A stretch of 32,000 bases of DNA from Xanthomonas campestris pv. campestris str. ATCC 33913 (GCF_000007145.1 NC_003902.1:5003426-5035425); one strand, 5' to 3'. Shown: positions 2,744-27,735, counted from the stretch's first letter. Numbers and translations are program-made. The notes: generated by a model from the sequence alone, not told the origin.

Positions 2744-2768
2744 GCCGCCCGGCCTGCTACCTGGCAGA

Positions 2769-2800: not shown

Positions 2801-2928
2801 AGGGTGACACCAGGCATCAGTGTGCGCGTTCCTGCCTGTGCACGCTCACGCGCTGCTACGCCATCGACAGGCCTTACAGGTCACTGGGCGTGCTCCGTTG
2901 TCAGCGTGACGTGCGAGACCCCCTCCCC

Positions 2929-3219: not shown

Positions 3220-3293
3220 GGACAGATGCCTCTTGCTCAGTGGCAATGATCGCCGCGATTTTAATGATTGGTGTCGCAGCTATTGCTGTCGGC

Positions 3294-3324
3294 GGCAGTT
3301 ATTCGAAAGTTTCGAATAACTGCC
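3294..3324. promoter_or_regulatory. Perfect 31-nt palindrome (15-bp arms, 1-nt centre) upstream of higA; candidate operator or hairpin
   Basis: GGCAGTTATTCGAAA-G-TTTCGAATAACTGCC, verified base by base. It is AT-rich relative to its surroundings and is followed by TTTT on the plus strand. It sits between the recD stop (3388) and the higA start (3219). Confidence 0.5.
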
Positions 3325-3387: not shown

Positions 3388-5625
3388 TCAGAACAACGAC
3401 CCCTGCACAGGCGTGACAGTGGGTGGTTCTGCTGTTTGCTCAACGGGTGCCGGCTGCATCTGCTCCCCACCCAACCGCCACGCCAGGCCGGAGATACGCG
3501 CGGCGTGCCGTGCGAGCGCTGCGCGCAGAGCTGCCTCGCTGCCGGCCAGGTGCAGGGCGCGGCGGGCGCGGGTGATGCCGGTGTAGAGCAGTTCGCGGCT
3601 GAGCACGCGGGCGTCGCGGGTGGGCAATTGCAGCCAGACGGTGTCGAATTCGCTGCCCTGGGCTTTATGCACGGTCATGGCGAAAGCGCTTTCGTGGGCG
3701 GGCAAGGCGGCGGGGTGGAAGCCGCGTACCTGGCTGTCGCCGTCGCCTTCGAACCAGGCGACCAACGGGCCTTGGGCACGGCGTTCGGCGACGGGGTCGG
3801 CGCGATTTGCGGTGCCGATGCTGTGGCTTGGGCCGGAAGACGCAGCTGCGTCGCTACGCGCTGTAACGGTGCTCGCGTCGCTGCGCTCCGAGGGAGCGTT
3901 TGTGTCGCTTCGCTCCGAAAAGGGACTCGCTTCGCTGCGCAGGCAGATGCCGACGTCGCCGTTGAACAGGCCGTGGCGGTAGCTGTTTTCGGTGATCAGC
4001 AGCAGGCGGCCCTGGAACCAGGGCGAGGCGCTGCCGAGGCGGCGGGCGCCGGAGCCGGATTCGGCCAGCAGTTGTTCGATGCGGGCGTTGAGGCCGCGCG
4101 CACCTTGCGGGCCGGCGCGTACGGCGGTGAGCAGGCGCAGGCGCGCGGCATCGCGCAGGGCGGCGGCGGGGTCGTGTGCATCAGCCAGCGCGCGCCAGTG
4201 CGCGAGCAGTGCGTCGCGGCCCAGGGCCAGCGGGTCCTCGCCGTCTTCGTGGAAGTGCACGCCGGCCAGTTCGCCGCTGCGTAGCAGGGCCAGGGCGGTG
4301 TCGGCGTCGCTGGTGCGAATGGCGTCGGCCAACGGGGTGAGTGCAAAGTTGTCTGCTTGGCGGTAGCCGCGTAGCAGGTGGACGCGGTGGCCTGCGAGGC
4401 CGCCGGTGTGGGTGTGGCTGATGGTGTGGCCGCCGGTCTGGATGCTGGCAGGCGTGCTGCCAGGGGGGGCGCTGCCGAGCAGCGGTTGCAGCGCGTCGGC
4501 GTCTTGCGGCTGCAGGGTATCGCCGGGGCCGGCGGCCTGCAGGATGGCGGCGAGCACGTCGCCGGCTTCCACCGAGGGTAGCTGGTCGGCGTCGCCGAGC
4601 AGGATCAGCTGGGTGCCGTCGGCCACGGCTTCGACCAGCTTGCACATCAGCGGCAGGTCGACCATGGAAGCCTCGTCGACGACGATCAGGTCGAATGGCA
4701 ACGGGTTGTCGGCGGTGTGGCGGAACTGCGGGGAGTCCGGGATGACGCCGAGCAGGCGATGCAGGGTGCTGGCACCGGTGGGCAGGGCGTCGGCCAGGGC
4801 CGGGTCGATGCCGTTGGCGATGGCGCGCGCGACGGCGGCGCGCAGGCTTTCGGCCATGCGCTCGGCGGCGCGGCCGGTGGGTGCGGCCAGGGCGATGCGC
4901 GGGGCCGGGGTGTTGGATGCGTGTGCTTGGGCGATGCGCAGCAACAGCAGGCGGGCGATGGTGGTGGTCTTGCCGGTGCCGGGGCCGCCGGTGACCAGCA
5001 GCAGGGTGCGGCGTAGGGCGAGGGCGGCGGCTTGGGCTTGGTGGTCTTGGTGGTGGGATGGCTCGGGTGGGTTCGTGCCGTCTTGGTAGATGGATGGCTC
5101 GGGCAGGCCCGTACCCTCACCCGCCCTTCGGGCACCCTCTCCCTGGGGGAGAGGGGAAGCCTGGGGGAATAACTGCTCGAACAGCGGGGCTAGCGTGGCG
5201 GCGGCGAAGGGCGGCGGCGAATGGGCGGCGATGCGTTGCAGACCTAGTGCCAAGCGGCGTTCGTACTCGCGGTAGCGGCGCAGGTAGAGCAGGCCGTGTT
5301 CGAGGACTAGCGGGCAGTCGGCGGCGGCCGGCTCTTGCGGATTCGGTTGGTCGACCCAGCGCGAGGCGGCCAGGGTGCGTTGCCAGTCGGTTGGGTCCGG
5401 GAGCGCGGGCGATGGCCCCTCGCGCGCATCCAGCAGCATGGCGGCGCGGGTGGGATCCAGCCCTGCGTGGCCGCTGGTGACGGCCAGTGAGGCGAGTGCG
5501 GCGCCGGCCAACACCTGGGGGTCGGTGTCCGGGGCCAGGCGTTGCAGGCTCTGGGCGAAGGCCAGATCTAGCGTGCGTAGGGCGCCGGCCTGGTTGAGGG
5601 CGGTTAGGAGGTTTGGGTGGTTCAT
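3388..5625 (-). CDS. recD: Exodeoxyribonuclease V alpha subunit RecD (745 aa, with low-complexity insertions)
   Basis: Walker A VTGGPGTGKTTT, VDEASMVDL, LILLGDADQLPSV, NGDVGICL and MTVHKAQGSEF helicase motifs are present. The ATG at 5625 overlaps the recB TGA (ATGA at 5625-5622). Confidence 0.95.
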   Translation of the reverse strand: MNHPNLLTALNQAGALRTLDLAFAQSLQRLAPDTDPQVLAGAALASLAVTSGHAGLDPTRAAMLLDAREGPSPALPDPTDWQRTLAASRWVDQPNPQEPAAADCPLVLEHGLLYLRRYREYERRLALGLQRIAAHSPPPFAAATLAPLFEQLFPQASPLPQGEGARRAGEGTGLPEPSIYQDGTNPPEPSHHQDHQAQAAALALRRTLLLVTGGPGTGKTTTIARLLLLRIAQAHASNTPAPRIALAAPTGRAAERMAESLRAAVARAIANGIDPALADALPTGASTLHRLLGVIPDSPQFRHTADNPLPFDLIVVDEASMVDLPLMCKLVEAVADGTQLILLGDADQLPSVEAGDVLAAILQAAGPGDTLQPQDADALQPLLGSAPPGSTPASIQTGGHTISHTHTGGLAGHRVHLLRGYRQADNFALTPLADAIRTSDADTALALLRSGELAGVHFHEDGEDPLALGRDALLAHWRALADAHDPAAALRDAARLRLLTAVRAGPQGARGLNARIEQLLAESGSGARRLGSASPWFQGRLLLITENSYRHGLFNGDVGICLRSEASPFSERSDTNAPSERSDASTVTARSDAAASSGPSHSIGTANRADPVAERRAQGPLVAWFEGDGDSQVRGFHPAALPAHESAFAMTVHKAQGSEFDTVWLQLPTRDARVLSRELLYTGITRARRALHLAGSEAALRAALARHAARISGLAWRLGGEQMQPAPVEQTAEPPTVTPVQGSLF
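3850..3940. repeat. Imperfect 27-bp (9-codon) tandem repeat, about 3.3 copies, inside recD
   Basis: The units run 3850-3876, 3877-3903 and 3904-3930, plus a partial copy. All begin GTCGCT and encode xxSERSDxx-type repeats (PFSERSDTN / APSERSDAS / TVTARSDAA). Confidence 0.7.
5111..5156. repeat. REP-like hairpin element embedded in-frame in recD
   Basis: GTACCCTCACCC-GCCCTTCGGGCA-CCCTCTCCCTGGGGGAGAGGGG. It shares the GTACCCTCACCC head and the CCCTCTCCC/GGGAGAGGG stem with the copy at 5650-5688. It is translated as SPLPQGEGARRAGEGTG. Confidence 0.65.
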
Positions 5626-8600
5626 GGGGTGGGCGTTCCCGTGGTGGACGTACCCTCACCCCAACCCCTCTCCCGAGGGGAGAGGGGCTTTAAGGCGTCA
5701 CTGGAAAGAGGCTCGGTGGGATTGCCGGCGAACAGGGCGTCCAGGGCTTGGACCAGCGCCGGATCGAAGCGCCAGGCGTAAATGCCAGGCACAGGCGTAT
5801 TGGGTGCAGGCGTATCGGACATGGCGTCGCTGGCGGGGTCGGAACCGGAGACGGAGCTGGCGCCGTTGACGGAGTCGGAGTCGGAGTCGGAACCGGAACC
5901 GGAACCGGAACCGAGGATGGAGCTGGAGTCGGCGGCGGGGTTACGGGCCGCGTCCAGGCCGCGGCAGAACAGGTAGCGCACGCCGCCGAAGTCGCGGGCG
6001 TAGTCGTAGCTGGCACCCAGGCGGAAGCGCAGCCAACGGTGCAAGGCGATGGTGTAGATCAGCGCCTGCAGTTCGTACTCGCTGTGCGCCATGGCCCGCG
6101 CCAGGGCGTCGGGGTCGTAGGCCGGCAGGCGGTTGGATTTGTAGTCGAGCACGTACCAGCGCCCGTCCGCGCAGTAGGTGAGGTCGATCAGGCCGGTCAT
6201 CAGGCCTTCCAGGCGTTGGCGCGCGCCGAAGGCCTGGCGCTCGGTGACCACGCCAAAGCGGTGCAGCAGCGCCAGCAGGGCGTCCACGCGGGTGGGCCGC
6301 ATGGCGAAGTGGAATTCCATCTCGTTGCGGCGCTGCGGCTCGGGCACCGCGGCCAGGCAGGTGCCCTCGGGCAGGGTCACGGTGAGGGTGTGGCCGACCA
6401 GGCGGGTGAGCATGGCCAGGCCGTCGTCCAGTTCGTCCTGGGCGTAGCCGCCGCGTTGCAGCGCTTCGAGAATGGCGGCGGCCTGGCCCTCGGGCGCGGG
6501 CTGGCCGGGGCACCAGTTGCGCCAGGCGGCGAAGTCGCAGCGTTCGAACACATCGTGCATGGCCACGCCGAAGCGGTTGCCAGCAAAGCGGGGGTCGAAC
6601 GCCTCCACCTCGGCGGGCGCGCTCACCGGCTCGCTGGCCGGCGGTTCGTCGCTGCCGCCACTGCTGGCGAGCGTGGCGCTGGCCATCGGGTCGCTGCCGG
6701 CGTCGGCATTGGCCAGCTGGGTGAAGCTGTAGACCCACCAGTCCGGCACCACGTGGCGCTGCGCCAGCCGCGCGGCGGGCACCTGCACCGCGTCGTCGGC
6801 GGGCAGGCGCGGCAGCGTGGCCGGCGGCGCGGTGTCGTCGAGGGCGATCACCCCTGCACCGGCGCTGGCCTGCAGTGCGGCCGGGTCGCGCAGCATCGGC
6901 GCCAGCGCGGTGCGCTCGTGCTGGTGGAAAGCACCGGTGGCGATCCACAGCGCGTGCTCGGCGCGGGTCAGGCCGACGTAGAGCAGGCGCGCGTCTTCGG
7001 CGCGCTGTTCGTGCTTCCACGCCGTCTCGGCGGTGCTCCAGCTGGCGGTGTCGTCGGCGCTCCATTTGGAGGTGTTCCAGTGCAGCTGGCGGCCATGCGG
7101 TGGCGCGTGCACCACGCAATGGCGGCCCGGGCTTTTATCGGCACGGCCAATGCCGATGTACGGCAGGAACACCAGGGGGTATTCCAGGCCCTTGCTCTTG
7201 TGCAGGGTGACGATCTGCACGCGGCGCGCGTCCGATTCCAGCCGCAGCTGCTGGGTCTCGTCATTGTCGTCGGCATTGGCGATGCGGCGTGCCAGCCAGT
7301 CGACCAGGCCGTGCGGGCCGAGCGCGCGGGTGTCGGCTTCCTGCAGCAGCTCGGCCAGTTGCAGGTAGTTGGTGAGACGGCGTTCGCCATCGACCAGGGC
7401 CAGCAGGCGTTGCCCATGCGTGGCCCCCAGATCGCCGACCAGGGCCAACGGGCCGCCGCGCTGCCAGCGTTCGCGCCAGTCCAGCGCCTGCTGCTGCCAG
7501 CGGCGATGACGCTCGCCGTCGTGTTCGAGGGCGGCAATGGCGGCGGCGTCTTCGCCGATCAGCACGGTGGCCAGCGCGGCACGCAGGCGGCTGTCGTCGC
7601 CCGGGTCGAGCAAGGCCTGCAGCAAGGCGAGCAGTTCCAGTGCTTCGTCGGTGGCGAACAGGCTCTGCTTGCCGGCCGCCACCGCAGGAATGCCCACCGC
7701 GCCCAGCGCTTGCTGGATGCGCGTGGCCTCGCCATGACTACGCACCAGCACCGCGATGTCGCCGGCCTGCACCGGGCGGCCGTTGATGCTGGCGCTGCCG
7801 TCGCGGCCACCGGCCAGCCAACCGCGGATGGCCGCCACGCAGGCAGCGGTGCACAGCTCGCGCGCGCGGCCGGCGCTCCAGGGTTTGGGTTTGCCTTTCG
7901 CGGGCGGTGGCGGCGCAGGCGCGCGCCACAGCGTCAGTGCCGGGGCCGCGGCGTCATCGCGCTGCAGATCGGCGTCGCTGCGTTTGGTACCCGGCTGCAC
8001 CGGATGAAACGCGATGCCCTCGGTGAGGAAGGCCTCGGCATAGCCAGCCTGCGCGTACAGCGCGTCGATGGCCGCCAGCACGCCGGGGCGCGAGCGGAAG
8101 TTGTGCTCCAGCGGCGGCGCGCGTTGTGCGGTGGTGGCCGCAGCCAGATAGGTCTGCACGTCGCCACCGCGGAAGCCGTAGATGGCCTGCTTGGGGTCGC
8201 CGATCAAGGCGAGCAGGCGCGGCGGCGGGGTGCCGGCAGCGTTGTCGAAATCCGCATCATCGTCCGGCGCGAATGCCGCGCCGGAGGCACCGTGCTCAGG
8301 CCCGAACACGCGCGAGAAGATCTGCCACTGGCGGTCGTCGGTGTCCTGGAATTCGTCCACCAGCGCAATGGCGTATTGCGCGCGCAGCCGCTGCACCAGC
8401 GCTTCGGCCTGCGGGCCCTGCAATGCGCGAGCGACGCCATCGACCAGGTCGTCGTAGGTTTGCACGCGGCGCTGGCGCTTGCGCTGCGCCAGCTGCAGCA
8501 CGGCATCGTCGCGCAGCGCATGCAGCAGGCGGATGCGGCGCTGCCCTTCCCACTGGCGCACCACTGCATCGGCCTGTTGCCACACGGCGAGCGCGTCGAA

Positions 8601-13436: not shown

Positions 13437-16400
13437 TCAGTATTTCTTTTCCAGGTTGATCATCCAGGTCTGATCGTTGCCGCTGTCGCCGTCGGTGATG
13501 CCGCGGTATTCCAGCCGCGTCGACAAGCCTTGTTCGGTCAGCAAGGCCGCACCGATACCGACCATCAGGCGGTTGCGATCGAACGCGTTCTGACCGGTGC
13601 GATACACCGGGCCACCGATGATGTCGGCATAGCCCAGCGTTGCGTCGCCGCGGCCCTGGAAGTCGCGCTGATACTCCACGCGGACCTGCGGGGTCAGGCG
13701 TCCCCAGGCCACATCGCGGCGCCATTCCAGGCGCAGGCCCAGGTTGCCGGTGGTGGTGGCCACATCCATGTCGTCATAGCGCAGCGCGAACGGCGCGATG
13801 CCATCTTCGACGTAGCCATCCAGGGTTGCCCGCGCCACATCCACCCGCGCATACGGGGTGATCTGCAGATTGCCGCGTTGCAGGTCTGCACCGCTGGACA
13901 GCGAGGCGATCCACTGCTTGCCGTCGCGGCTGCCTTCGGCCATCGAAGCGTCGTCGGTGACGAAACGACGCAGGTCGTAAGACAGCAACTGATAACCCAC
14001 CAGGGTGTCGAAGAAAAACGCCTTGCCCGGATGGAAGCTGGCATACAGCGCCATGGTGTAGGCGGTGGCCTTGGAGTGGCTGCCGTTCCTGCCTACATCG
14101 CTGTCGTCGCGGCCCCAACCCAGGCCCGCACCCACTGCCAGCGACGGCGCCAGCCGGTAGTCCGCACCCACGCTCAAGCCATCGGTCTGGAAGTCCACGC
14201 CGTTGGTGTTGGCCTGCCTGTCCAGGCTGCCGGAGCGGATCGCACCGCCCACCCACAGGCCCAGGTCGCCCTGGCCCTGCGCACCGCCGGTGCCGCCGGT
14301 CGCCATCGCTGGCGCATCGCGGAACTCGTTGTCGGCATCCTGGGTGTCCGGGCTGCACGGCTGCGCGCTGATGCCGCGATCGGCCTGGCGGCAATGCGAG
14401 GTCGGCTGGAAGGTCACCGCATTGCTCAGCGTGCTGCCGCCACGGTGGGTGGCTTCCAGACGGCGCTGGAAGTTGTCGATCTGCGCCTTGGCGAAGCGCC
14501 GCGTCGACTCGGACTGCGCATCGATCAGGCCACGCACTTCCGCATCCACACTCGGGTCGCGCCGCGGCGCCACGGTGAAGGTCACGCTTGCCGCCGCCGA
14601 GGTGGCGAACGCGTTGGACAAGGTGAACTGCACGGTGGCCTGACCGACGAAAGCCGGGTTCGCCACGAAGGTCAGCATGAAGCTGGGTGAAGAAGCCTGC
14701 GCAGTGGCCGCAGGCACAAAGCCGGAAGTGCGCGCCGCTGCCGCCGCTGCACCACCCACCTGGGTGATGGTGGCGGTCCCGGCCGAGGCCGGCAGCACTG
14801 CGACCACCGCGGCGGCCACGAACGGCCCGCCGGTGGCATCACGGGTCAGATCGACCTGCGAGGCCGCACCCGGCACCGCCTCGGCGGTGACCGACACGGC
14901 GATCGGGCGCGCATTGACGGCGATGGTCACCGTTGCTGCGGCCGAGGTTCCACCGCTGCCGGTGACCGTGTAGCTCACCACATCGGTGCCGACAAACCCG
15001 GCCGCCGGCGTGTACACCAGCTCCAGCCCATTGACCGCGGCGGTGCCGTTGGTCGGCGCGGTCGCAATGGCGATCGCAGTGATGTTGCCGGTGTCGTTGG
15101 CGGTCACTGGCACCGTCACCGCCGCATCGCTCATGGTCGCTGCGGTATCGGCCACGGCAACCGGGGCCGCCGTGCTCACCGTGAAGGTGTACGCCTGCGT
15201 CGCAGTAGCGTTGCCGGCATCGGCCACCGCGATGGTGAAGGACGTGCTGCCTTCGGCGGTGGGCGTGCCTGACAACACGCCGTTGCTCGCCAGCGTCAGT
15301 CCGGCCGGCAAGGTGCCGCTGGCAACGCTGTAGGTGTACGGCGCAACACCACCGGTGGCGGTCAACACCTGGCTGTACGGCGTACCGCGCACCGCTGGCG
15401 GCAGCGTGGGTTGACTAGGTACCAACGTGGCGCCGGCAATGCTCAGCGTGTAGCTCTGGTTGGCCTGCGCGGCCGGGCTGGGCGTGCTGTCGGTGACAGT
15501 CAGGGTGAAGTTGAACGTGCCAGACACCGTTGGCGTACCGCTGAGCGTGCCGGTCGCAGCGTCCAGCACCACACCGCTCGGCAATGCGCCCGCGGTCAGT
15601 GCATAGCTGTACGGCGCAGTGCCGCCGGTCACCGGCGAAATCGCCGCCGTGTAGGCCTGCCCCGCCGTACCGGCCGGCAAGTTGCTGGCCGGCAAGGCCA
15701 GGTTCGGGCTGGCCACCGTCAGTACATAGGCCTGCGACGCGGTGAAGTTGTTCGCGTCGGTCGCCGTCACGGTGAAATTGAAGCCGCCTTCCACCGTCGG
15801 GTTACCGGACAGCGTGCCGTTGCTGGCCAAGGTGAGGCCAGCTGGTGCACTGCCTGCGTTCACCTCATAGGTGTACGGCGCGGTGCCGCCGCTGGCGGTC
15901 AGTACTTGGCTGTAGGCCGTGCCGCGGGTTGCAGCCGGTAGCGCAGTGGGCGCGACCACGATGACAGGTGCCGCAATGCTCAGCGTGTAACTCTGGCTGG
16001 CCTGCGCAGCCGGGCTGGGCGTGCTGTCGGTGACAGTCAGGGTGAAGTTGAACGTGCCAGACAGGGTCGGCATGCCGCTGAGGCCGCCGGTCGCCGTATC
16101 GAGGACAACGCCGTTGGGCAATACGCCGGCGCTCAGTGCATAGCTGTAGGGCGCGGTGCCGCCGGTGGCAGGAGCAATCGTCGCCGCGTAGGCCTGCCCC
16201 GCCGTACCTGCCGGCAAGCTGCTCGCCGGCAACGCCAGGTTCGGGCCGGCCACCGTCACTGCATAGGCCTGCGAAGCGGTGAAGGTGTTTGCATCGGTCG
16301 CAGTCACGGTGAAGTTGAAGCTGCCTTCCACCGTCGCGGTGCCGGACAGCGTGCCGTTGCTGGCCAGGGTGAGGCCAGCCGGCACGTTGCCCGCGCTGAC

Positions 16401-18665
16401 GGCATACGTGTATGGCGCGGTTCCGCCGCTGGCGCTGAGCGTCTGGCTGTAGACCGTGCCGCGCGTGGCCGCCGGCAGCGCAGTGGGCGCGACCACGATG
16501 ACAGGTGCTGCGATGGTCAGCGTGTAGCTGCGGCTGGCCTGCGCCGCCGGGCTGGGCGTGCTGTCGGACACGGTCAGGGTGAAGTTGAACGTGCCCGCCA
16601 CGGTCGGCGTGCCGCTGAGTCCACCGGTCGCCACGTCCACGACCACACCCGTCGGCAACGCACCGGCGGTCAGTGCATAGCTGTAAGGCGCGGTGCCGCC
16701 CGTGGCGGGCGTGATCGACGCGGAGTACGCCTGCCCGGCGGTACCTGCCGGCAAGCTGCTTGCCGGCAACACCAGGTTCGGGCCAGCCACGGTCAGGCTG
16801 TAGGCCTGATTGGCGGTGAAGCTCCCCGCATCGGTGGCGGTCACGGTGAAGTTGAAGCTGCCTTCCACCGTTGCGGTACCCGACAGCGTGCCGTTGCTGG
16901 CCAGGGTGAGGCCGGCCGGCAATGCGCCACTGGCGAGTGCGTAGGTGTACGGCGCGGTGCCGCCACTGGCGCTCAGCGTCTGGCTGTAGGCAGTGCCACG
17001 CGTGGCGGCCGGCAGCGTGGACGGCGCAACCACAATCGGCGGCGCGGCGATGTTCAAGGTGTAACCGCGTGTGCCCTGCGAGGGCGTGCCGCTGGTGCTG
17101 TCGGTGGCGGTCACGCTGAAGGCAAAGCTGCCCACGCTGCCGGGGGTGCCGGTCAAGGCGCCGCTGCTGCCATTGAGCGTGATGCCCGCCGGCAGGGCGC
17201 CGGCAGTGACGGCGTAGGTATACGGCGGAATGCCGCCGGTCGCTGGGTTGAGCGCCCCCGAATAAGCCTGGCCTGCAGTGCCGGCCGGCAAGCTGGTCGC
17301 CGGCAAGGTCACCGTCGCGCCGGCCACGGTCAACGTGTAGGCACGGTTGCCGCTGGTGGGACTGCCGCCGCTATCGGTAGCGGTGGCGGTGAAGTTGAAG
17401 CTGCCGGTGGCCGTGGGCGTGCCGGACAGCACGCCGGCAGCGCTCAGGGTCAGCCCGGCCGGCAACGCACCGGCAGTGACGGCGAAGCTGTACGGCGCGG
17501 TGCCGCCGCTGGCGCTCAGGTTCTGGCTGTAGGCGCTGCCCGCGGTCGCCGCCGGCAGCGATGCCGGCCCGACCGTCACCACCACGTCGTCGTTGAGGAT
17601 GGTGCCGGCGCCGGTGGCGCGCGCGATGCTTGCGTTGCTGGCACCGGACAGGCCGACGCTGAAGGTCTCGTTGGGTTCGAGCGCGGTATCGCCGTTGACG
17701 GTGATGGCCACGCCTTGCGCGGTGGTGCCGGGCGCGAACGTCAGGGTGCCGGAACGCGCGACATAGTCGCTGCCGGCGGTGGCAGTACCGTCGGCGCTGG
17801 CGTAATTGACCGACACGGTCTGGCCGCTGGCCGCGCTCAGGGTCACCGTGAAGGTGGCCGTGGTGGTGCCGCTGTTGCCTTCGTTGACGCTGACGTCGTC
17901 GATCGACAGCGAAGGCAGCGCATCGTCGTTGACGATGGTGCCCTGGCCTTGGGCGTCGCTGACCCCGGCGCCGCTGACGTTGCTGACGTTGACGAAGAAG
18001 GTCTCGTTGGGTTCGCTGAGCGTGTCGCCGTTGACCAGCACGGTGAAAGTCGCGCTGCTACTACCAGCGGGGATGGTCTGCCCGGTGAGGCTGGAGGCGA
18101 CGTAGTCCACGCCTGCGATGGCTGAGCCATCGGCGGTGGCGATATCGAAGCTGGCGCCGCCGGCACCGGCCGGCTGGCTGAGCGAGACGGTGAAGGTGGC
18201 ATTGCTCGTGCCGGCATTGCCTTCATTCACCGAGACGTCGTTGATCGACAGCGTCGGCTGGCTCGGGGTGATGGTGATGTTGACAGTGATGATGTCGCTC
18301 CGGCCATCTTCTAGCGGGAACGTATCGCTGGTGGCGTTGTCACCGTTATGGGTGTAGGTGACGATCTGCGTGCCCTGGGCGCCGCTTGGGTTGGGAACGA
18401 CGATCGTGCCGTGCGCAGGTTGCACACCGTTCCAGCCAACGCCGATATCGTCTACCCCCGTGCCATCGCAGGTCGTTACGTCGATCTGTACCGAACCGCC
18501 CTGCACCACAGTGGCGTTCAAGGTCGGGCAGTAGGTCGAGGCTTGCGCCATCGCCCAGCCTGGTGCCAAGAGCGTCATCGCGAACAGGACAAACATCACG
18601 ACCAAACGTGCGCGGCCGCCGGTGGCGTCCGCTAGAAACCTACGCTGCTTGTTCACTGTCCACAC
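13437..18665 (-). CDS. Large autotransporter adhesin-like protein (1742 aa): signal peptide, 2 Calx-beta domains, 9 He_PIG-type Ig-like repeats, a cadherin/Ig-like region and a C-terminal autotransporter beta-barrel
   Basis: The signal peptide is ...LFAMTLLAPGWAMA-QA. The Calx-beta signatures are AGVDYVASSLTGQTIPAGSSSATFTVLVNGDTLSEPNETF and AGSDYVARSGTLTFAPGTTAQGVAITVNGDTALEPNETF. Repeats follow the pattern LPAGTAGQAYS..GGTAPYSYAL.AGALP.G..L....G.LSGTPT..G.FNFT. The C-terminal roughly 280 aa are beta-barrel-like (GLWVGGAIRSGSLDRQ...GADYRL...) and end in an aromatic residue (KKY). Confidence 0.9.
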   Translation of the reverse strand: MWTVNKQRRFLADATGGRARLVVMFVLFAMTLLAPGWAMAQASTYCPTLNATVVQGGSVQIDVTTCDGTGVDDIGVGWNGVQPAHGTIVVPNPSGAQGTQIVTYTHNGDNATSDTFPLEDGRSDIITVNITITPSQPTLSINDVSVNEGNAGTSNATFTVSLSQPAGAGGASFDIATADGSAIAGVDYVASSLTGQTIPAGSSSATFTVLVNGDTLSEPNETFFVNVSNVSGAGVSDAQGQGTIVNDDALPSLSIDDVSVNEGNSGTTTATFTVTLSAASGQTVSVNYASADGTATAGSDYVARSGTLTFAPGTTAQGVAITVNGDTALEPNETFSVGLSGASNASIARATGAGTILNDDVVVTVGPASLPAATAGSAYSQNLSASGGTAPYSFAVTAGALPAGLTLSAAGVLSGTPTATGSFNFTATATDSGGSPTSGNRAYTLTVAGATVTLPATSLPAGTAGQAYSGALNPATGGIPPYTYAVTAGALPAGITLNGSSGALTGTPGSVGSFAFSVTATDSTSGTPSQGTRGYTLNIAAPPIVVAPSTLPAATRGTAYSQTLSASGGTAPYTYALASGALPAGLTLASNGTLSGTATVEGSFNFTVTATDAGSFTANQAYSLTVAGPNLVLPASSLPAGTAGQAYSASITPATGGTAPYSYALTAGALPTGVVVDVATGGLSGTPTVAGTFNFTLTVSDSTPSPAAQASRSYTLTIAAPVIVVAPTALPAATRGTVYSQTLSASGGTAPYTYAVSAGNVPAGLTLASNGTLSGTATVEGSFNFTVTATDANTFTASQAYAVTVAGPNLALPASSLPAGTAGQAYAATIAPATGGTAPYSYALSAGVLPNGVVLDTATGGLSGMPTLSGTFNFTLTVTDSTPSPAAQASQSYTLSIAAPVIVVAPTALPAATRGTAYSQVLTASGGTAPYTYEVNAGSAPAGLTLASNGTLSGNPTVEGGFNFTVTATDANNFTASQAYVLTVASPNLALPASNLPAGTAGQAYTAAISPVTGGTAPYSYALTAGALPSGVVLDAATGTLSGTPTVSGTFNFTLTVTDSTPSPAAQANQSYTLSIAGATLVPSQPTLPPAVRGTPYSQVLTATGGVAPYTYSVASGTLPAGLTLASNGVLSGTPTAEGSTSFTIAVADAGNATATQAYTFTVSTAAPVAVADTAATMSDAAVTVPVTANDTGNITAIAIATAPTNGTAAVNGLELVYTPAAGFVGTDVVSYTVTGSGGTSAAATVTIAVNARPIAVSVTAEAVPGAASQVDLTRDATGGPFVAAAVVAVLPASAGTATITQVGGAAAAAARTSGFVPAATAQASSPSFMLTFVANPAFVGQATVQFTLSNAFATSAAASVTFTVAPRRDPSVDAEVRGLIDAQSESTRRFAKAQIDNFQRRLEATHRGGSTLSNAVTFQPTSHCRQADRGISAQPCSPDTQDADNEFRDAPAMATGGTGGAQGQGDLGLWVGGAIRSGSLDRQANTNGVDFQTDGLSVGADYRLAPSLAVGAGLGWGRDDSDVGRNGSHSKATAYTMALYASFHPGKAFFFDTLVGYQLLSYDLRRFVTDDASMAEGSRDGKQWIASLSSGADLQRGNLQITPYARVDVARATLDGYVEDGIAPFALRYDDMDVATTTGNLGLRLEWRRDVAWGRLTPQVRVEYQRDFQGRGDATLGYADIIGGPVYRTGQNAFDRNRLMVGIGAALLTEQGLSTRLEYRGITDGDSGNDQTWMINLEKKY
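15180..17575. repeat. Tandem DNA repeats encoding the Ig-like domain array; the central copies form a two-domain unit of about 537-540 bp
   Basis: GATGACAGGTGC[C/T]GC[A/G]ATG recurs at 15960 and 16497. Related junctions occur near 15430 and 17037. Long stretches between the copies are near-identical by eye. Confidence 0.8.
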
Positions 18666-18912
18666 CCCTGGAGCGCGCCATCCCCGGCGCCGGCAACGAT
18701 CCTCGTGCCTGAAGGCAACGCCGCCCTAGAGATTTTCCCCTTCGGCATTGCGAGCGTATTTGAACAGGAACTGACTGACGAATAAACAATGAAAACTTAA
18801 TACTTCATTCCAGTTCTAGATATTCCAGGCTTGCTCAATCAGAACTGGACAAGTATCTGTACGAATGACCCCGACACGCGGTCGGTGTTGCACTTACGGG
18901 AAGGAAATCCGC
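18666..18912. promoter_or_regulatory. AT-rich divergent intergenic region between the autotransporter gene and the tail-collar cassette
   Basis: This 247-bp gap is markedly less GC-rich than its flanks (for example AATAAACAATGAAAACTTAATACTTCATTCCAGTTCTAGATATTCC). Its position implies divergent promoters. No individual -35/-10 box could be called with confidence. Confidence 0.4.
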
Positions 18913-19458
18913 ATGAGCGAGTTTTTCATGGGTCAGATCATGATGACCGGCTTCGTTTTCGCGCCAAAATATTTCGCGCAGTGCAATGGGCAGTTGCTGC
19001 CGGTCAACCAGAACCAGGCGCTCTTCAGCTTGCTTGGTACGCGTTTCGGCGGCAATGGAAGTACCACCTTCGCGCTGCCGGACATGCGCGGGCGCACCCC
19101 GGTCGGCTTTGCGCCATCTGCAGATCCGGCCTGGCAACCTTCGCCGCTACCGATGGGCCAGAACTCCGGCGCCGAGAACGTTTCGCTGCTGCCCGACAAC
19201 CTGCCAGCGCACAACCATTCGCTGGAGGGTTCCAGCGCTGCGGGCAACAACCGTAGTCCCAGCGGCCGCTCTTTCGGCACCAATGCCAGCACGACCGGTC
19301 CGGCCACCGCGCTGTATGCGGCGCCGGGACCCCTGGTGGCAATGAATCCAGCAACCGTGGCTCAGGCCGGTGGCAGCCAGCCGCATCCGAACCTGCAGCC
19401 GTACACCACGCTCAATTTCTGCATCGCGCTGTCCGGCATCTTTCCCTCGCGCAGCTAG
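18913..19458 (+). CDS. Phage-tail-collar-domain protein (MdpB/COG4675-like), paralog 1
   Basis: MSEFFMGQIMMTGFVFAPKYFAQCNGQLLPVNQNQALFSLLGTRFGGNGSTTFALPDMRGRTPVG ... PNLQPYTTLNFCIALSGIFPSRS. GGAAGGAAA lies upstream of the ATG at 18913. The ORF-track start at 18865 adds a non-homologous extension. Confidence 0.85.
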   Translation: MSEFFMGQIMMTGFVFAPKYFAQCNGQLLPVNQNQALFSLLGTRFGGNGSTTFALPDMRGRTPVGFAPSADPAWQPSPLPMGQNSGAENVSLLPDNLPAHNHSLEGSSAAGNNRSPSGRSFGTNASTTGPATALYAAPGPLVAMNPATVAQAGGSQPHPNLQPYTTLNFCIALSGIFPSRS

Positions 19459-19532
19459 CGCGGCGCCTGCATTTCATAAACGCAGCGTGCCACCGCCGCG
19501 GGGCAGCGCGCCCATCGACCAGAAAGGACACC

Positions 19533-20060
19533 ATGGCCACTCCATTCATCGGCGAGATCCGCATGTTCGGCTTCGGGCGTACTCCGCAAGGCTGGCAGGC
19601 CTGCGACGGCAGCCTGTTATCGATCTCCGACTACGAGGTGCTGTTCATGCTGATCGGCAACACCTACGGCGGCGATGGGCAGAACACCTTCGCGGTACCG
19701 GATCTGCGCGGGCGCGTGCCGCTGCATCAAGGCCAGGGCCCGGGCCTGAGCAACTACGTGATCGCCCAGACGGCTGGCACCGAGTCAGTTGCACTGACCG
19801 GACTGCAGTTGCCGGCGCACACACATACGTTGGTGGCCACAACCGCTGCCGCGACGGCCACCGCGCCGTCCGGCCTATTGCCTGGCACAGTCACCGGCGA
19901 CGTGTTCTACGCGACCGACACCACCGGTGCCACGGCAGCGCCGATGGCCACGCAGTCGACCACGATCACCGGCGGTGGCCTGGCGCACGAGAACACCATG
20001 CCGACCTTGACGGTGCAGTACTGCATTTCCACTGTCGGCATTTTCCCGCAGCAGAGCTGA
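19533..20060 (+). CDS. Phage-tail-collar-domain protein (MdpB/COG4675-like), paralog 2
   Basis: MATPFIGEIRMFGFGRTPQGWQACDGSLLSISDYEVLFMLIGNTYGGDGQNTFAVPDLRGRVPL ... ENTMPTLTVQYCISTVGIFPQQS. AAAGGA lies upstream. Confidence 0.85.
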   Translation: MATPFIGEIRMFGFGRTPQGWQACDGSLLSISDYEVLFMLIGNTYGGDGQNTFAVPDLRGRVPLHQGQGPGLSNYVIAQTAGTESVALTGLQLPAHTHTLVATTAAATATAPSGLLPGTVTGDVFYATDTTGATAAPMATQSTTITGGGLAHENTMPTLTVQYCISTVGIFPQQS

Positions 20061-20120
20061 GCCCATTCACCGCGCCGCGCTCGGTGCGGTGCCTGCACGT
20101 TCTATAGAAGGACCGCGTTC

Positions 20121-20660
20121 ATGACCGAACCCTATATCGGCGAAATCCAGCTGTTCGGCTTCGATTTCAATCCCGTCGGCTGGGCGTTGTGCAACGGCGC
20201 CACGCTGCCGCTGCAGCAGAACACCACGCTGTACTCGCTGCTGGGCATCGTCTATGGCGGTAACGGCACGACCACGTTTCAACTGCCTAACTTCTGTGGA
20301 CGCGCCGGCTGCGAGCAGGGGCAGGGCCCGGGACTGAGCAGCCGGCAGTTGGGCAATAGCTTCGGCACGGCCGCCGTGAGCCTGTTGCCCACGCAGATCC
20401 CGCCGCACCAGCATGGCGTCAGCGCGTTCACGCAACCGGATTCGACCAAGAAAAGCGGCACGCCCGCCAATGGCGCAGCGCTTTCAGCGCTGGGCGGCAG
20501 CACAGCACGCCCGTTCGTGACGGTGACACAACCCGACACCCAGTTCTCGCCGGCGGCGCTGCTGCCAACCGGCAACGGCCTGGCCCACCAGAACCAGCAA
20601 CCGTATCTGGCGGTGAATTTCTGCATTGCGTTGTCTGGCACCTATCCACAGTTCGATTGA
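20121..20660 (+). CDS. Phage-tail-collar-domain protein (MdpB/COG4675-like), paralog 3
   Basis: MTEPYIGEIQLFGFDFNPVGWALCNGATLPLQQNTTLYSLLGIVYGGNGTTTFQLPNFCGR ... QNQQPYLAVNFCIALSGTYPQFD. GAAGGA lies upstream. Confidence 0.85.
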   Translation: MTEPYIGEIQLFGFDFNPVGWALCNGATLPLQQNTTLYSLLGIVYGGNGTTTFQLPNFCGRAGCEQGQGPGLSSRQLGNSFGTAAVSLLPTQIPPHQHGVSAFTQPDSTKKSGTPANGAALSALGGSTARPFVTVTQPDTQFSPAALLPTGNGLAHQNQQPYLAVNFCIALSGTYPQFD

Positions 20661-20664
20661 CGCC

Positions 20665-21237
20665 ATGCAGGGCGAAGCTTCCGCGACTCCAGCGAGCGTG
20701 CATCCGCAAGCAGAATGCGAGCGCATGCCTGCACTGCTTGCGCACCGCATCACACTGCGCGCCGAACACGACACCGATGTGCCTTGGCTACGCAATCTCT
20801 ATGCCAGCGCACGCAGCGACGAACTGGCGCACGTCCCCTGGCCGGAGACGACCAAGCGCGCGTTTGTGGATCAGCAGTTCGCGCTGCAGCGCACGCATTA
20901 TCGGCAGCATTATCGCGACGCCGACTTTCTGATCGTACAGACGCCGGACGAACGCATCGGCCGGCTGTATCTTCAACGCGCAGCCGTGCAGCACGTGCTG
21001 GTCGATATCAGTTTGTTACCGCATTGGCGCGGCAGGGGCGTGGGCACCGCATTGATCATGCATGCGCAGGCGTTGGCGCAGGCCGCAGGCTGTGGCGTGG
21101 CATTGCACGTCTTTCATGCCAATCCTGCGGCGCGCCGGCTTTATACGCGCCTGGGCTTTCTCGCAGGCGACGCCAGCAGTACCCACCTTGCGATGCACTG
21201 GCAGCCCGCCGAGAGGGCGGCCACGCCGCTCAGTTGA
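20665..21237 (+). CDS. GNAT-family N-acetyltransferase
   Basis: The acetyl-CoA-binding core is LVDISLLPHWRGRGVGTALIMHAQALAQAAGCGVALHVFHANPAARRLYTRLGF. The ATG at 20665 lies 4 nt after the stop of paralog 3. An alternative start at 20725 (MPALLAHRITL) would give about 170 aa. Confidence 0.8.
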   Translation: MQGEASATPASVHPQAECERMPALLAHRITLRAEHDTDVPWLRNLYASARSDELAHVPWPETTKRAFVDQQFALQRTHYRQHYRDADFLIVQTPDERIGRLYLQRAAVQHVLVDISLLPHWRGRGVGTALIMHAQALAQAAGCGVALHVFHANPAARRLYTRLGFLAGDASSTHLAMHWQPAERAATPLS

Positions 21238-21586
21238 ATATCGCCTGATACAAAAAGCCGTCGCGCTCGCGTGCTACCGGCACAAGAAATACCCCGACCT
21301 CGCCCAGCCGGCTGTGCCGCAGCTGATAGATCTGCTGCGGAAACAGAAACGCCGAACTGTTGCGGAACAGCAGCGAGAACGGCGCCCGGTGCACCGCCTG
21401 CGTGGTCGGAAGCGGGCGTGCCTCGACCAGCACGAAGGGAATCTCGCCGTCGTTCAAGGCAGCAGAGAAGTTGTCGTTGACGCTTCCTGCGAAGTGTTCC
21501 AGGGTCAGCAAATCCATCTGCACGCTCGGGCTGGCTAAGGCGGCTCCATCATCTACGTGCAGGCATACCTCACACAACGTAGCCAT
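21230..21586 (-). CDS. Small conserved-looking hypothetical protein, convergent with the GNAT gene
   Basis: The sequence is MATLCEV...MDLLTLEHFAGSVNDNFSAALNDGEIPFVLVEARPLPTTQAVHRAPFSLLFRNSSAFLFPQQIYQLRHSRLGEVGVFLVPVARERDGFLYQAIFN. The pattern FSLLF...Q.IY.L.H..LG...FLVP......YQAIFN looks like a conserved family of unknown function. The start is uncertain: 21586, or 21517 (MDLLTLEHF). The upstream part of the ORF-track version (to 21757) looks non-coding. Confidence 0.6.
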   Translation of the reverse strand: MATLCEVCLHVDDGAALASPSVQMDLLTLEHFAGSVNDNFSAALNDGEIPFVLVEARPLPTTQAVHRAPFSLLFRNSSAFLFPQQIYQLRHSRLGEVGVFLVPVARERDGFLYQAIFN

Positions 21587-26128: not shown

Positions 26129-26572
26129 CTATTTACCGGACCGCAGCGCCGGTTCGGGCATGACGGAAGGAGTGCGATCGGCGTAGGTGAGGTAGCTCTT
26201 CCATAGATCATGGGAGCGCTGATCGTTGAGATCGACGCGACAGCTCGCCGCTTTCGCCAGCGCGACTGATGCGGTGCCCCACAACACACGCACATTACCG
26301 CATTGCCTTTCGCTGTAAGTCCGCCAGGCAGCTTGCGCTGCATCGAACGCATCGGCTGACAGACCAAAATCTGTCAGCGCCCTTGTGCCTGCTGCCTGCA
26401 GATAGTCGTCGAGGTGTGCCTGCGACTACGCAACCTCTTTGGTCCAGCAGGCATTGCTCTGCGCAGTTGTCGCCAGGTCCACACATAGGTCAGATGCATG
26501 TGCTGAAACGCAGTAAAGAAGGCTCAGGAGTGGAAGTAGGTGCCTCACGGTGTCTCTTTGGCTTTCACGCAT
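26129..26572 (-). pseudogene. DUF1311/LprI-like periplasmic protein gene interrupted by an in-frame amber codon
   Basis: This is a hand translation in a frame absent from the ORF track. It reads ATG 26572 MRESQRDTVRHLLPLLSLLYCVSAHA-SDLCVDLATTAQSNACWTKEVA-TAG (26428-26426)-SQAHLDDYLQAAGTRALTDFGLSADAFDAAQAAWRTYSERQCGNVRVLWGTASVALAKAASCRVDLNDQRSHDLWKSYL...SGK-TAG (26131-26129). A signal peptide and the C..C...L..Y...Q.AW..Y...C pattern run continuously across the stop. Confidence 0.55.
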
Positions 26573-26716
26573 TGCTCTTCTCTACGTCTGCACGGTCAGT
26601 CAACGTGGAATGCAACTGCTGAGACCGCCCGCGTAGCAGCGCCCTGTTGGACCGAAATCGAACAGGTGGCTGACTGGATGACGAGTCGCAATATGTCTTT
26701 GTCCAAGCAGCGCCGG

Positions 26717-27262
26717 TTAGTGCGCCAACGCCGCATCGACGGCCTGGCGCAGGCGGACGTCATCGGCGGCGACGTCGGGTGCGAAGCGTTCGATGACCTG
26801 GCCGTCGCGGCCGATCAGGAATTTTTCGAAGTTCCACAACACGCCCGGTGCCGGGTTGGCGGCGATGCCGTAGCCGGCCAGCTTTTCGCGCATCGGGCCA
26901 TCGCCGGTGGCCTGCGGCTGTGCGCTGGTCAGCGCCTGGTACAACGGATGGATCTCGGCGCCGGTGACGGCGATCTTGGAGAACAGCGGGAAGGTGACGT
27001 CATAGGTAAGCTGGCAGAACTGGGCGATCTCCGCCTCGCTGCCGGGCTCCTGCCCATTGAAGTCGTTGGCCGGGAAACCCAGCACTTCCAGGCCCTGGGC
27101 CTGCTTGTCGCGGTACAGCGCTTCCAGGCCTTCGTACTGGGGAGTCAGCCCGCACTTGGAGGCGACGTTGACCACCAGCAGCACCTTGCCGCGATGCGCG
27201 GCCAGGCTGGTGGCGCCACCGTTGATGTCGGTCACGGGAATGTCGTGGATGCTCTGGCTCAT
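26717..27262 (-). CDS. btuE: Glutathione peroxidase (BtuE-like, Cys-type)
   Basis: MSQSIHDIPVTDINGGATSLAAHRGKVLLVVNVASKCGLTPQYEGLEALY...LGFPANDFNGQEPGS...LWNFEKFLIGRDGQVIERF is colinear with E. coli BtuE/GPx motifs. The start at 27262 is preferred. Confidence 0.92.
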   Translation of the reverse strand: MSQSIHDIPVTDINGGATSLAAHRGKVLLVVNVASKCGLTPQYEGLEALYRDKQAQGLEVLGFPANDFNGQEPGSEAEIAQFCQLTYDVTFPLFSKIAVTGAEIHPLYQALTSAQPQATGDGPMREKLAGYGIAANPAPGVLWNFEKFLIGRDGQVIERFAPDVAADDVRLRQAVDAALAH

Positions 27263-27345
27263 CGGTGCGTCCTGTTGGAGAAAGCGCCAGAGCATAACCG
27301 CCGGGCGAGCGCGAGCGCTGCACCCGACGCGCTAAGGTCAGCGGA

Positions 27346-27735
27346 TCAATCGATGCACAGCGCTGCCTGGCCCATGCCGCCGACCACTTCCTGGCGGCAA
27401 CCGAAGCGATCGCTGTCGCGCTGGCAGGTGCCGCTGGTGGCGGTGCCGGCGGGCACGATGCTGGTGGCCAGGCAATCACCGCTGCAATCCGAGTTGTCGG
27501 TGCAGGTCTTGCCGGCATCGGCGTAGGGCACCACACACCGCGGCGTCTGCATGCGGCCTACCGGACGCATCTGACCGCCTTTGGCGGTGCAGGCGGCAGC
27601 GTCTGTGGATGTGGATGTGGATGTGGATGGTGCAGGTGTCACGCCCGCCGCCTGGGACGGTTGCGTGGTGGGCGTATTGCTGCAGGCGGCCAGCAGCAGT
27701 GCGGACAGTGTCGTGTACATCCATCGGCTCGACAT
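27346..27735 (-). CDS. Cysteine-rich lipoprotein of unknown function
   Basis: MSSRWMYTTLSALLLAACS carries a lipobox. It is followed by a Thr/Ser/Pro linker with STSTSTST and then a domain with 8 Cys (CTAKGG...CVVPY...CTDNSDCSGDC...GTCQRDSDRFGC...ALCID). Confidence 0.7.
   Translation of the reverse strand: MSSRWMYTTLSALLLAACSNTPTTQPSQAAGVTPAPSTSTSTSTDAAACTAKGGQMRPVGRMQTPRCVVPYADAGKTCTDNSDCSGDCLATSIVPAGTATSGTCQRDSDRFGCRQEVVGGMGQAALCID
27605..27628. repeat. In-frame hexanucleotide microsatellite (GTGGAT)x4 in the lipoprotein linker
   Basis: Read directly from the sequence. It encodes (ST)4 on the minus strand. Confidence 0.9.

Follow-up and report, generated by a model that had tools for sequence, protein, structure and literature searches.

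A tail-collar gene trio linked to GNAT, DUF6916 and giant adhesin genes in Xanthomonas campestris and other bacteria

The 32,000-nucleotide stretch of Xanthomonas campestris pv. campestris str. ATCC 33913 analysed here (NC_003902.1:5003426-5035425, hereafter the window) carries three tandem genes encoding phage tail-collar (Collar) proteins, C1, C2 and C3, followed by a gene encoding a GNAT N-acetyltransferase and a convergent gene encoding a small DUF6916 protein. These five genes form a module that is conserved across many bacterial phyla, and the giant adhesin gene located on the other side of the trio belongs to the system as a conserved partner. As judged from their sequences, the trio proteins are true members of the Collar/COG4675 family and full-length homologues of phage fibre tips, and they are not virion components. 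We favour, with a probability of about 0.45, a reading in which the locus is a cellular, non-viral module whose Collar proteins would correspond to a domesticated phage fibre tip, acting as a lectin-like heterotrimeric knob together with giant surface fibres.

Linkage of the Collar trio with GNAT, DUF6916 and giant adhesin genes

A scan for the trio in one genome per GTDB species recovered at least 585 loci encoding relatives, and the 80 loci matching this trio most closely were compared, with 8-kb flanks, by tblastn and all-against-all clustering of their open reading frames (ORFs). Among these best 80 of at least 585 loci, Collar genes are present in essentially all, the GNAT gene in 71 and the DUF6916 gene in 59. 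Their hosts are Proteobacteria (Xanthomonadales, Rhizobiales, Sphingomonadales, Burkholderiales and Shewanella) as well as Acidobacteriota, Chloroflexota, Gemmatimonadota, Verrucomicrobiota, Bacteroidota, Actinomycetota, Myxococcota and a Lysinibacillus (Bacillota). Three Collar copies per record are also found on plasmids or chromids of rhizobia, Azospirillum, Aminobacter, roseobacters and Deinococcus (Deinococcota). The same association is recovered from the other genes. Starting from DUF6916, 47 of the 55 metagenome loci with enough flank show GNAT-C3-C2-C1 in the exact arrangement of the window, the exceptions being Lysobacteraceae-like loci in which DUF6916 lies beside mlaF and the trio is gone. 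Starting from the GNAT, all three distant homologues located on long contigs come after three Collar genes. The first-pass annotation of this DNA, made from the sequence alone, had proposed that its grouping of these genes would fall if the GNAT and the small gene were not syntenic with the trio in other genomes; since the linkage holds from all three starting points, the grouping stands. Besides the Collar, GNAT, DUF6916 and giant proteins, no family occurs in more than 14 of the 80 loci, barring spurious overlapping-frame or antisense ORFs.

The gene transcribed divergently from the trio encodes a giant type Va autotransporter composed of a signal peptide, two Calx-beta domains, nine He_PIG (putative Ig) domains, SprB repeats, a Big_9/Cadherin_5 region and a C-terminal beta-barrel (Pfam E-values of 5e-129 for He_PIG, 2e-51 for Autotransporter and 4e-28 for Calx-beta). 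The type Va features include a PF03797 match of 175.5 bits at residues 1470-1720 and a hydrophobic N-terminus ending in 'AMAQA'. Homologues of this adhesin are encoded at the corresponding place in 29 of the 80 loci, from Xanthomonadales, five rhizobial genera and Aliidongia, and this shared position across lineages suggests that the six genes have been inherited and exchanged as a unit. Giant neighbours of any family (ORFs of 900 aa or more, located no farther than 1.5 kb from the module) were counted in the 60 loci having at least 2.7 kb on both sides. Such an ORF is present in 45 of the 60 loci; these contain 46 adjacent giants versus 8 elsewhere in 804 kb of flank, about 17-fold more than expected from the flank density. 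The first-pass annotation had described a stand-alone cassette and treated the adhesin as an unrelated neighbour, and neither description survives these counts.

The giants examined are mostly Ig, cadherin, Calx-beta or fn3 proteins, with export signatures of type V (T5a and T5b), type I (T1SS-type) or type IX (T9SS-type) secretion systems or of Gram-positive bacteria. They are Calx-beta/Big_9/cadherin proteins in Acidobacteria, two-partner-secretion proteins with TPS, ESPR and YDG domains at two loci (L056 and L075), and proteins combining DUF4347 with Ig or fn3 domains at three others (L038, L166 and L168); the N-terminal DUF4347 domain is one that we take to be associated with T1SS-type giant adhesins. 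Further examples are an Ig_7 (CHU_C-associated) protein of T9SS type (L080), a Cadherin-like/List_Bact_rpt protein in Lysinibacillus (L069), a Cadherin protein in Chloroflexia (L063), a beta-helix protein on a Deinococcus plasmid, a 'Putative Ig' protein on a Rhizobium plasmid and, at a locus found from the GNAT, a fn3/Calx-beta/Cadherin_5/Big_9 protein. Only Calx-beta and Big_9/cadherin domains recur among them. The presence of a DUF6916-like domain inside the giant adhesin was tested and rejected.

Additional genes accompany the module in a few loci. Six of them, from Erythrobacter, Pseudolabrys, Hyphomicrobiales, Aliikangiella and others (L028, L030, L036, L044, L054 and L074; e.g., L044:4800-13000 and L036:2000-16000), have a lasso-peptide-type cluster around the trio, GNAT and DUF6916 genes, encoding an Asn-synthase-like cyclase, a transglutaminase-like B2 protein, a PqqD B1 protein, a HPr-kinase-like protein, a sulfotransferase and an ABC exporter. 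A single metagenome locus (JGI 3300067032) has two further genes, at 4017-4403 and 7659-7958: one of the bAvd/23S_rRNA_IVP four-helix-bundle family, upstream of the trio, and a small one of the GIY-YIG type, between the GNAT and DUF6916 genes.

Protein families of the module and gene content of the window

The three Collar proteins span the full 57-position PF07484 model with scores of 87.3, 90.0 and 80.4 bits for C1, C2 and C3, respectively (cut-off 24 bits), and with three adjacent genes at about E 1e-23 or better, chance is no issue for their identity. They share 37-39% identity in pairwise comparisons, and the motifs G-[EQ]-I, W..C[DN]G, GG[ND]G..TF..P[DN], P.H.H, H.N..P and C-I...G..P are invariant in all three, the HxH site reading 'PAHNHSL' in C1, 'PAHTHTL' in C2 and 'PPHQHGV' in C3. 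Spacers of 74 bp (C1-C2) and 60 bp (C2-C3) separate the genes, each of which is preceded by an AGGA or AAGGA Shine-Dalgarno sequence. In 134 of 149 Collar proteins from related loci, a Met is located exactly 6 residues ahead of the G[EQ]I motif, a family rule that fixes the start of C1, and all but two of these 134 (132) have S, T, A or G as their second residue. The C1, C2 and C3 ORFs leave no room for a signal peptide. On all these points (three tail-collar paralogues, 60-74-bp spacers with a Shine-Dalgarno sequence per gene, no signal peptide), the first-pass annotation was correct.

C2 is 90% identical to proteins of X. nasturtii, X. arboricola and X. campestris that are named only 'tail fiber', 'phage tail' or 'microcystin-dependent' protein, and an identical C2 is encoded in many Xanthomonas assemblies. 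In X. phaseoli pv. phaseoli ATCC 49119 (L049:8039-9778), the Collar ORFs are in pieces of 200, 78, 147 and 136 aa that match the window less well than those of other Xanthomonas do; this degraded-looking trio could be due to pseudogenisation or to an assembly error. A Collar profile search of the PDB retrieved phage fibres only, namely the long tail fiber 8kec (E 6e-9, with an alignment spanning the HxH motif) and T4 gp12, and tblastn matches to phages span residues 6-172 with at most 40% identity to the phage proteins. No NCBIfam model matched the Collar proteins. The region of C2 past the HxH motif (about residues 100-147) is its most variable part and presumably forms the distal tip. The AlphaFold2 (AF2) model of the C2 monomer is poor, with a predicted local distance difference test score (pLDDT) of 44, as one would expect of an intertwined oligomer, an outcome that a shallow alignment could explain equally well.

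The GNAT matches PF13302 (Acetyltransf_3, RimJ/RimL-type) over its full length (E 7e-7) and keeps the acetyl-CoA-binding motif of the superfamily (R/Q-x-x-G-x-G/A) as 'RGRGVG'. Its subfamily numbers over 2,500 database proteins (90%-identity representatives, E ≤1e-10), and its family has its own conserved N-terminal region (LRP..D.PFL..LY..TR..E...W....K..F...QF..Q..HY). The best NCBIfam match is RimI (TIGR01575); the score of 35.1 bits is far under the equivalog cut-off of 86.4, so that we rejected this protein as a RimI orthologue. When the subfamily profile was compared with the PDB, 6wqb (an 'N-terminal acetyltransferase'), RimI, Naa50 and archaeal N-terminal acetyltransferases were among the best matches. 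As the first-pass annotation had described, the gene directly follows the third Collar stop codon; the gap of only 4 nt and the lack of a Shine-Dalgarno sequence of its own make translational coupling between C3 and the GNAT likely. Given the small residue at position 2, all three Collar chains should lose their Met and expose a small residue. Rim- and NatA-like N-alpha-acetyltransferases act on substrates of this type. By analogy, a specific but weakly supported guess would be that the GNAT N-alpha-acetylates the trio chains; alternatively, it could acetylate the adhesin or a glycan.

The DUF6916 gene overlaps the 3' end of the GNAT gene by 8 nt, and its product has no signal peptide. Here the first-pass annotation was right about the convergent position and the overlap; its outer end at 21586, corresponding to an upstream alternative start (118 aa), is less likely, the 95-aa form being preferred because nearly all homologues and the public gene calls of this exact locus have 95-96 aa. 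The protein, left there with no assigned family, is a known Pfam DUF that has exported relatives. Its AF2 model (pLDDT 92.3) predicts a six-stranded beta-barrel with a short N-terminal helix; its best fold matches, to a 43-kDa Mu-like tail protein, to the baseplate protein of phage 7-7-1 and to small uncharacterised phage proteins, are weak and not significant. The DUF6916 sequence has no match in the PDB and no model in NCBIfam, and we found no paper in a literature search for 'DUF6916' or 'PF21880'.

Members of the DUF6916 family are stand-alone proteins (4737 representatives of 50%-identity clusters, E ≤0.001), those of other Lysobacteraceae genera being about 70% identical to the window protein. 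They come in two forms, a short, signal-less form of 95-105 aa, as in the window, and a long form of 130-165 aa with a canonical twin-arginine translocation (Tat) signal (e.g., MSVSRRKFIKSGALTALSAG). Both forms are encoded together in many acidobacterial and betaproteobacterial loci; the long form was observed among DUF6916 genes flanking the trio at L041, L042, L048, L056, L059, L064, L067, L071, L072, L075 and L078 and in proteins P0270, P0319, P0321, P0339, P0353 and P0386. We also considered that DUF6916 could be a Mla-linked gene and rejected this, since it adjoins mlaF only in Xanthomonas and Lysobacter relatives and follows the trio in other phyla. At five Lysobacteraceae-like metagenome loci (L090, L101, L112, L129 and L130), DUF6916 is divergent from mlaF, like in the window, with no adjoining GNAT or Collar gene, and the other module genes have apparently disappeared.

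Table 1. Module genes, adhesin gene and intergenic region in the window (positions counted from its first nucleotide).
Feature	Positions	Strand	Length	Remarks
C1, Collar paralogue 1 (subunit type 1)	18913..19458	+	181 aa	PF07484 E 6.4e-25; weak Gp10_C match
C2, Collar paralogue 2 (subunit type 2)	19533..20060	+	175 aa	PF07484 E 9.4e-26
C3, Collar paralogue 3 (subunit type 3)	20121..20660	+	179 aa	PF07484 E 9.5e-23
GNAT N-acetyltransferase	20665..21237	+	190 aa	PF00583 E 1.1e-13, 52 bits (cut-off 20.7 bits)
DUF6916 protein	21230..21517	-	95 aa	PF21880 E 5e-28, 97.5 bits (cut-off 27), model positions 1-91 of 91
Giant type Va autotransporter adhesin	13437..18665	-	1742 aa from GTG	1739 aa in public gene calls
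Intergenic region	18666..18912		247 bp	Between the divergent adhesin gene and the trio; AT-rich centre

Besides the module, the window encodes RecD, RecB, RecC, MlaF/E/D/C/A, RmuC, an alcohol dehydrogenase and the autotransporter, as deduced from the ORF listing and Pfam. A Pfam search of the window ORFs revealed no sheath, tube, baseplate, lysis or integrase gene across the 32 kb, so that the cassette lies outside any prophage and without phage genes around it, as the first-pass annotation had claimed. The GC content over the module is 0.60-0.66, a modest dip compared with 0.70-0.72 in recBCD. From gene geometry alone, divergent promoters are presumed to lie in the region that separates the adhesin gene from the trio; a scan of this region for consensus sigma-70 promoters gave zero matches, and a scan for terminators revealed no convincing one between the module genes. 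Elsewhere in the window, positions 1-3300 have a GC content of 0.53-0.60 versus 0.65-0.72 in other parts and contain only short ORFs, two of which, both of 185 aa and on the minus strand (1242-1799 and 2046-2603), lack any Pfam match. So does a 328-aa ORF downstream of mlaA (26540-27526), located in a region of lower GC content (0.61-0.64).

Trio stoichiometry, cellular location and proposed mechanism

Collar genes of related loci occur in tandem runs, and exact threes account for 70 of 84 runs; threes or multiples account for 71, including one run of 12 genes (four trios). One run of 8 genes is cut by a contig end, and eight runs are singletons. Proteins at the same position of the run share 0.49-0.50 identity across genomes, versus 0.43 for proteins at different positions and 0.44 for the paralogues of a single genome. 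Position-specific hidden Markov models (HMMs) trained on the clade of the window were applied to 44 trios of other clades: 24 of them were typed in the order 1-2-3 and four others contained each type once in a permuted order, whereas chance would give 1.6 exact 1-2-3 trios and 9.8 trios with one of each type in any order. The typing and the positional identity thus indicate that the triplication is ancient and that all three types have been kept. The HxH motif is conserved without exception in the 213 trio proteins compared, at all three positions. In the homotrimeric T4 proteins gp12 and gp37, HxH supplies the histidines of an axial metal site; the window proteins carry the same motif, and metal binding is predicted for them.

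C1, C2 and C3 probably form one 1:1:1 heterotrimer in bacteria, as suggested by the Collar runs in threes, by the conservation of ancient positional types and by analogy with a virophage. The coordinates of the window show the layout of the virophage DSLV2 trio, i.e., three consecutive co-oriented Collar genes of similar length. The three virophage proteins co-purify as a complex of about 55 kDa, interpreted as 1:1:1, form a 16-nm fibre and bind Synechococcus cells, and the heterotrimer scored above homotrimers in AlphaFold3 (PMC12724248). The same evidence makes an obligate heterotrimer the better of the two options that the first-pass annotation had left side by side, the other being three alternative specificities. 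According to the latter, which we consider rather unlikely, the paralogues would form separate homotrimers with different ligands, i.e., a repertoire of alternative lectins or receptor-binding knobs. The homotrimeric state of the phage relatives, the existence of single Collar genes and of arrays of two to four trios (L045, L077, L165 and L172), the variability of the presumed tip and the signs of positive selection in tail-collar paralogues of Solibacter (PMC3174227) are all consistent with such a repertoire. However, alternative specificities predict a variable copy number, in contrast to the predominance of threes, and they do not account for three ancient types in fixed order across phyla or for the virophage complex. 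As a separate observation, three of these arrays (L045:4323-11477, L077:1690-6827 and L165:1-5417), which comprise 3-4 consecutive trios and up to 12 Collar genes, have no GNAT or DUF6916 detected close by.

Related loci provide hints that the module acts outside the cytoplasm. A profile built from a diversified Collar alignment retrieved relatives from IMG/VR, among them two Bacteroidota-like loci (L170:1148-3015 and L173:2099-3965; GC 0.34-0.36) with three Collar proteins of about 205 aa, each bearing a Sec signal (MKKQIILL...SQ) that ends just ahead of the conserved EPFIGE N-terminus. These proteins do not sort into the 1-2-3 types; their trios are followed by a YDG-repeat protein in L170 and by an ORF with no Pfam match in L173. 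At another locus, three consecutive secreted collagen-like (Gly-X-Y) paralogues of 474-533 aa (L172:882-5342) lie directly upstream of two Collar trios (L172:5693-8897), a hint of a heterotrimeric collagen-like shaft paired with knobs. The only phage-tail-like context that we saw is that of a 1-2-3-type trio with no GNAT or DUF6916 (L167:264-9133), located about 1 kb downstream of a protein with an eCIS_core domain (extracellular contractile injection system, eCIS) and 6 kb from a P2 gpI-like baseplate gene, with a weak tail-fibre-like protein and a TPR protein also encoded upstream. The Sec and Tat forms, together with the collagen-like and eCIS contexts, fit with a modular distal 'knob' used on different fibrous structures. 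COG4675 proteins have been detected in soil metaproteomes, indicating that members of this family are expressed.

The absence of phage context, emphasised in the first-pass annotation, thus holds for the window and for the 80 loci, among which no phage-like family recurs, and fails for a minority of related trios located beside phage- or eCIS-like genes. One could imagine on this basis that the trio is the fibre tip of a tailocin or eCIS particle encoded elsewhere and released by lysis, the adjacency of the adhesin being incidental. Release by lysis would make a signal peptide unnecessary, and the proteins are annotated 'tail fiber protein' in the sources. We nevertheless regard this as improbable: the window lacks particle, lysis and integrase genes, no further family recurs in more than 14 of the 80 loci, the polypeptide begins 6 residues ahead of the collar domain and thus lacks the shaft and baseplate-attachment region, and the eCIS-associated trio itself has neither GNAT nor DUF6916.

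Even less probable, in our view, is an antagonistic (bacteriocin-like) or anti-phage module in which the knob would bind a competitor receptor or a phage component, with the GNAT and/or DUF6916 providing self-protection. Phage receptor-binding domains are indeed reused in tailocins and in some bacteriocins, and the small DUF6916 gene packed against the module resembles the layout of immunity genes. However, the proteins consist of collar and head only, with no toxin or killing domain, and the PADLOC-DB models matched none of the five module proteins at E ≤0.1. The large DUF6916 family is well conserved, not hypervariable like immunity proteins, and the recurring partner is an adhesin-type protein. 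Nothing was found in support of the earlier idea that the GNAT belongs to a bacteriocin-like module or provides self-protection.

A purely cytoplasmic role in adhesin maturation is a serious rival, even if we deem it unlikely. The module would then work on the giant adhesin before export, for instance with the GNAT acylating the adhesin and the trio and DUF6916 acting as chaperone or targeting factors, never exposed at the surface. HlyC-type acyltransferases act in this manner on RTX toxins, and cytoplasmic glycosyltransferases on AIDA-I and HMW1. Genes for such cytoplasmic adhesin-modifying enzymes typically adjoin the adhesin gene (Aah/AIDA-I, HMW1C, HlyC), the giant neighbour of the module is conserved, and the trio, GNAT and DUF6916 of the window are all devoid of export signals. 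On the other hand, the GNAT remains with the trio in lasso-type loci that have no giant protein, the related trios with Sec signals and DUF6916 proteins with Tat signals point outside the cytoplasm, and a single specific chaperone would hardly suit giants that belong to unrelated families and are secreted by different routes.

We therefore retain the lectin-like heterotrimeric knob as our favoured reading, and propose that it could work as follows. C1, C2 and C3 would assemble 1:1:1 into a pseudo-threefold heterotrimeric knob that corresponds to the collar and head of T4 gp12/gp37 with the shaft absent, and that may be stabilised by a metal ion held by the six His of the three HxH motifs. A phage tip docks on a trimeric shaft; three differing chains would instead give the knob a single asymmetric base, and for that reason it could dock one monomeric partner, either DUF6916 or the giant fibre. 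The co-translated GNAT would modify the complex, possibly by N-alpha-acetylation of the Ser, Thr or Ala exposed on all three chains. The DUF6916 beta-barrel, judging from its genomic context, would be an adaptor or assembly partner of the knob, and in lineages that encode a second, signal-bearing DUF6916, this form could, by Tat hitch-hiking, take the folded knob across the cytoplasmic membrane or anchor it on the far side. The knob would finally be the ligand-binding (lectin-like) element of a surface adhesion or recognition apparatus whose fibre is the adjacent giant protein, here the He_PIG/Calx-beta autotransporter, with which the trio may interact physically.

Several observations weigh against this proposal. 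The main gap is export, since the Collar and DUF6916 proteins of the window have no signal that would account for a passage to the Xanthomonas surface; LecA and LecB of Pseudomonas are examples of lectins that act at the surface although they have no signal. About a quarter of the loci have no giant neighbour, and the six lasso-peptide-type loci have that cluster where the giant protein would be. A BLAST comparison of the window adhesin with 19 other giants revealed no docking domain common to all of them, the only similarity being in Calx-beta and of a generic Ig-like kind. The likeness of the GNAT to N-terminal acetyltransferases is limited to the generic acetyl-CoA-binding core, and the RimI cut-off is missed. 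The DUF6916 model has no match below E 1e-3 among PDB and BFVD folds. Finally, the best 80 loci are a biased sample of COG4675.

A bolder extension, which we consider rather doubtful, would see the module as an unrecognised pan-bacterial surface apparatus. The knob would be assembled in the cytoplasm, N-terminally acetylated by its own GNAT, handed over by DUF6916 (in many lineages by Tat hitch-hiking on a copy that bears the signal) and would cap or cooperate with giant monomeric adhesins that differ in family and secretion route, the heterotrimer existing because a broken threefold symmetry allows a trimeric viral tip to dock on a monomeric fibre.

Comparison with known systems

Experimentally tractable and very widespread, the module is systematically mis-annotated as phage. 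Across many phyla, genome annotations label its Collar family 'tail fiber protein' or 'phage tail protein', which can mislead prophage predictors, and IMG/VR lists as 'viral' contigs several loci that have a GNAT and a giant adhesin-type protein. Two of these (L166 and L168) resemble bacterial loci in that they have the GNAT, the trio and a giant protein of the DUF4347/fn3 type, and the 'tail fiber' annotation may contribute to their viral calls. If our favoured reading is true, a viral receptor-binding tip has been domesticated as the heterotrimeric recognition module of bacterial giant adhesins, in hosts that include plant pathogens (Xanthomonas), rhizobia and abundant soil phyla. Two orphan families, DUF6916 (about 4,700 50%-identity clusters) and the GNAT subfamily, would gain a role, heterotrimerisation would have a concrete rationale, and the trio would be a genetically tractable candidate determinant of host or surface specificity. 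Our searches of the literature for DUF6916, PF21880, COG4675 and tail-collar proteins, the latter also combined with acetyltransferase, adhesin or Calx-beta, did not retrieve a description of the module.

Among bacterial proteins, the closest in kind are RhiB, encoded by the rhiABC(D) genes of Rhizobium leguminosarum, and COG4675 'MdpB', a name that the window proteins also carry in the sources. Both are Collar proteins found outside prophages and are uncharacterised in the literature, in line with the remark of the first-pass annotation that the family has no established function outside phages. RhiB is the only genetically named bacterial relative; it differs from the window proteins in being encoded by a single Collar gene, located between those of RhiA and RhiC (both devoid of Pfam domains), on a symbiosis plasmid, flanked by quorum-sensing genes (rhiI/rhiR) and with no trio, GNAT or DUF6916.

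The partners of the trio resemble known proteins to different degrees. The GNAT resembles RimI, RimJ and RimL by its fold, its Acetyltransf_3 match, its best NCBIfam model and the N-terminal acetyltransferases at the top of its PDB profile matches, and its presumed Collar substrates would, by analogy, expose Ser, Thr or Ala. It differs from RimI by its score (35 versus 86 bits), by its own N-terminal region and by its linkage to the trio instead of ribosomal genes. The giant adhesin, a large type Va autotransporter with a repetitive passenger, resembles in kind the YapH adhesins, of which two have been described in xanthomonads, one of them with adhesion and biofilm phenotypes, with no mention of adjacent Collar genes in the published work (PMC3826837).

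T4 gp12 and gp37 (PF07484) and 8kec are homologous to the window proteins over the Collar domain and the downstream head, HxH included, and a GGxQxHxNxxP / C-I-A-x-x-G motif closing the collar at its C-terminus is a further shared feature. The T4 proteins are homotrimers of long chains (e.g., 527 aa), in which the tip is carried by a trimeric shaft anchored in the baseplate. By contrast, the window proteins are the tip only (175-181 aa), exist as three ancient paralogues in a chromosomal locus devoid of virion genes and are partnered by a GNAT, a DUF6916 protein and a giant adhesin.

The nearest functional precedent, and the only experimental one for a heterotrimeric Collar knob, is the trio of the virophage DSLV2/Aquatic Virophage 1 lineage, likewise composed of three consecutive co-oriented Collar genes of similar size (J Virol 2025, PMC12724248). 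The virophage trio is found in a viral context, beside the minor capsid gene, with a predicted attachment to capsomers, and no GNAT, DUF6916 or giant adhesin was reported (PMC12724248). In our best reading, what is new in the module of X. campestris is a cellular heterotrimeric fibre tip that has no shaft, that has its own dedicated GNAT and DUF6916 and that is coupled to giant adhesins.

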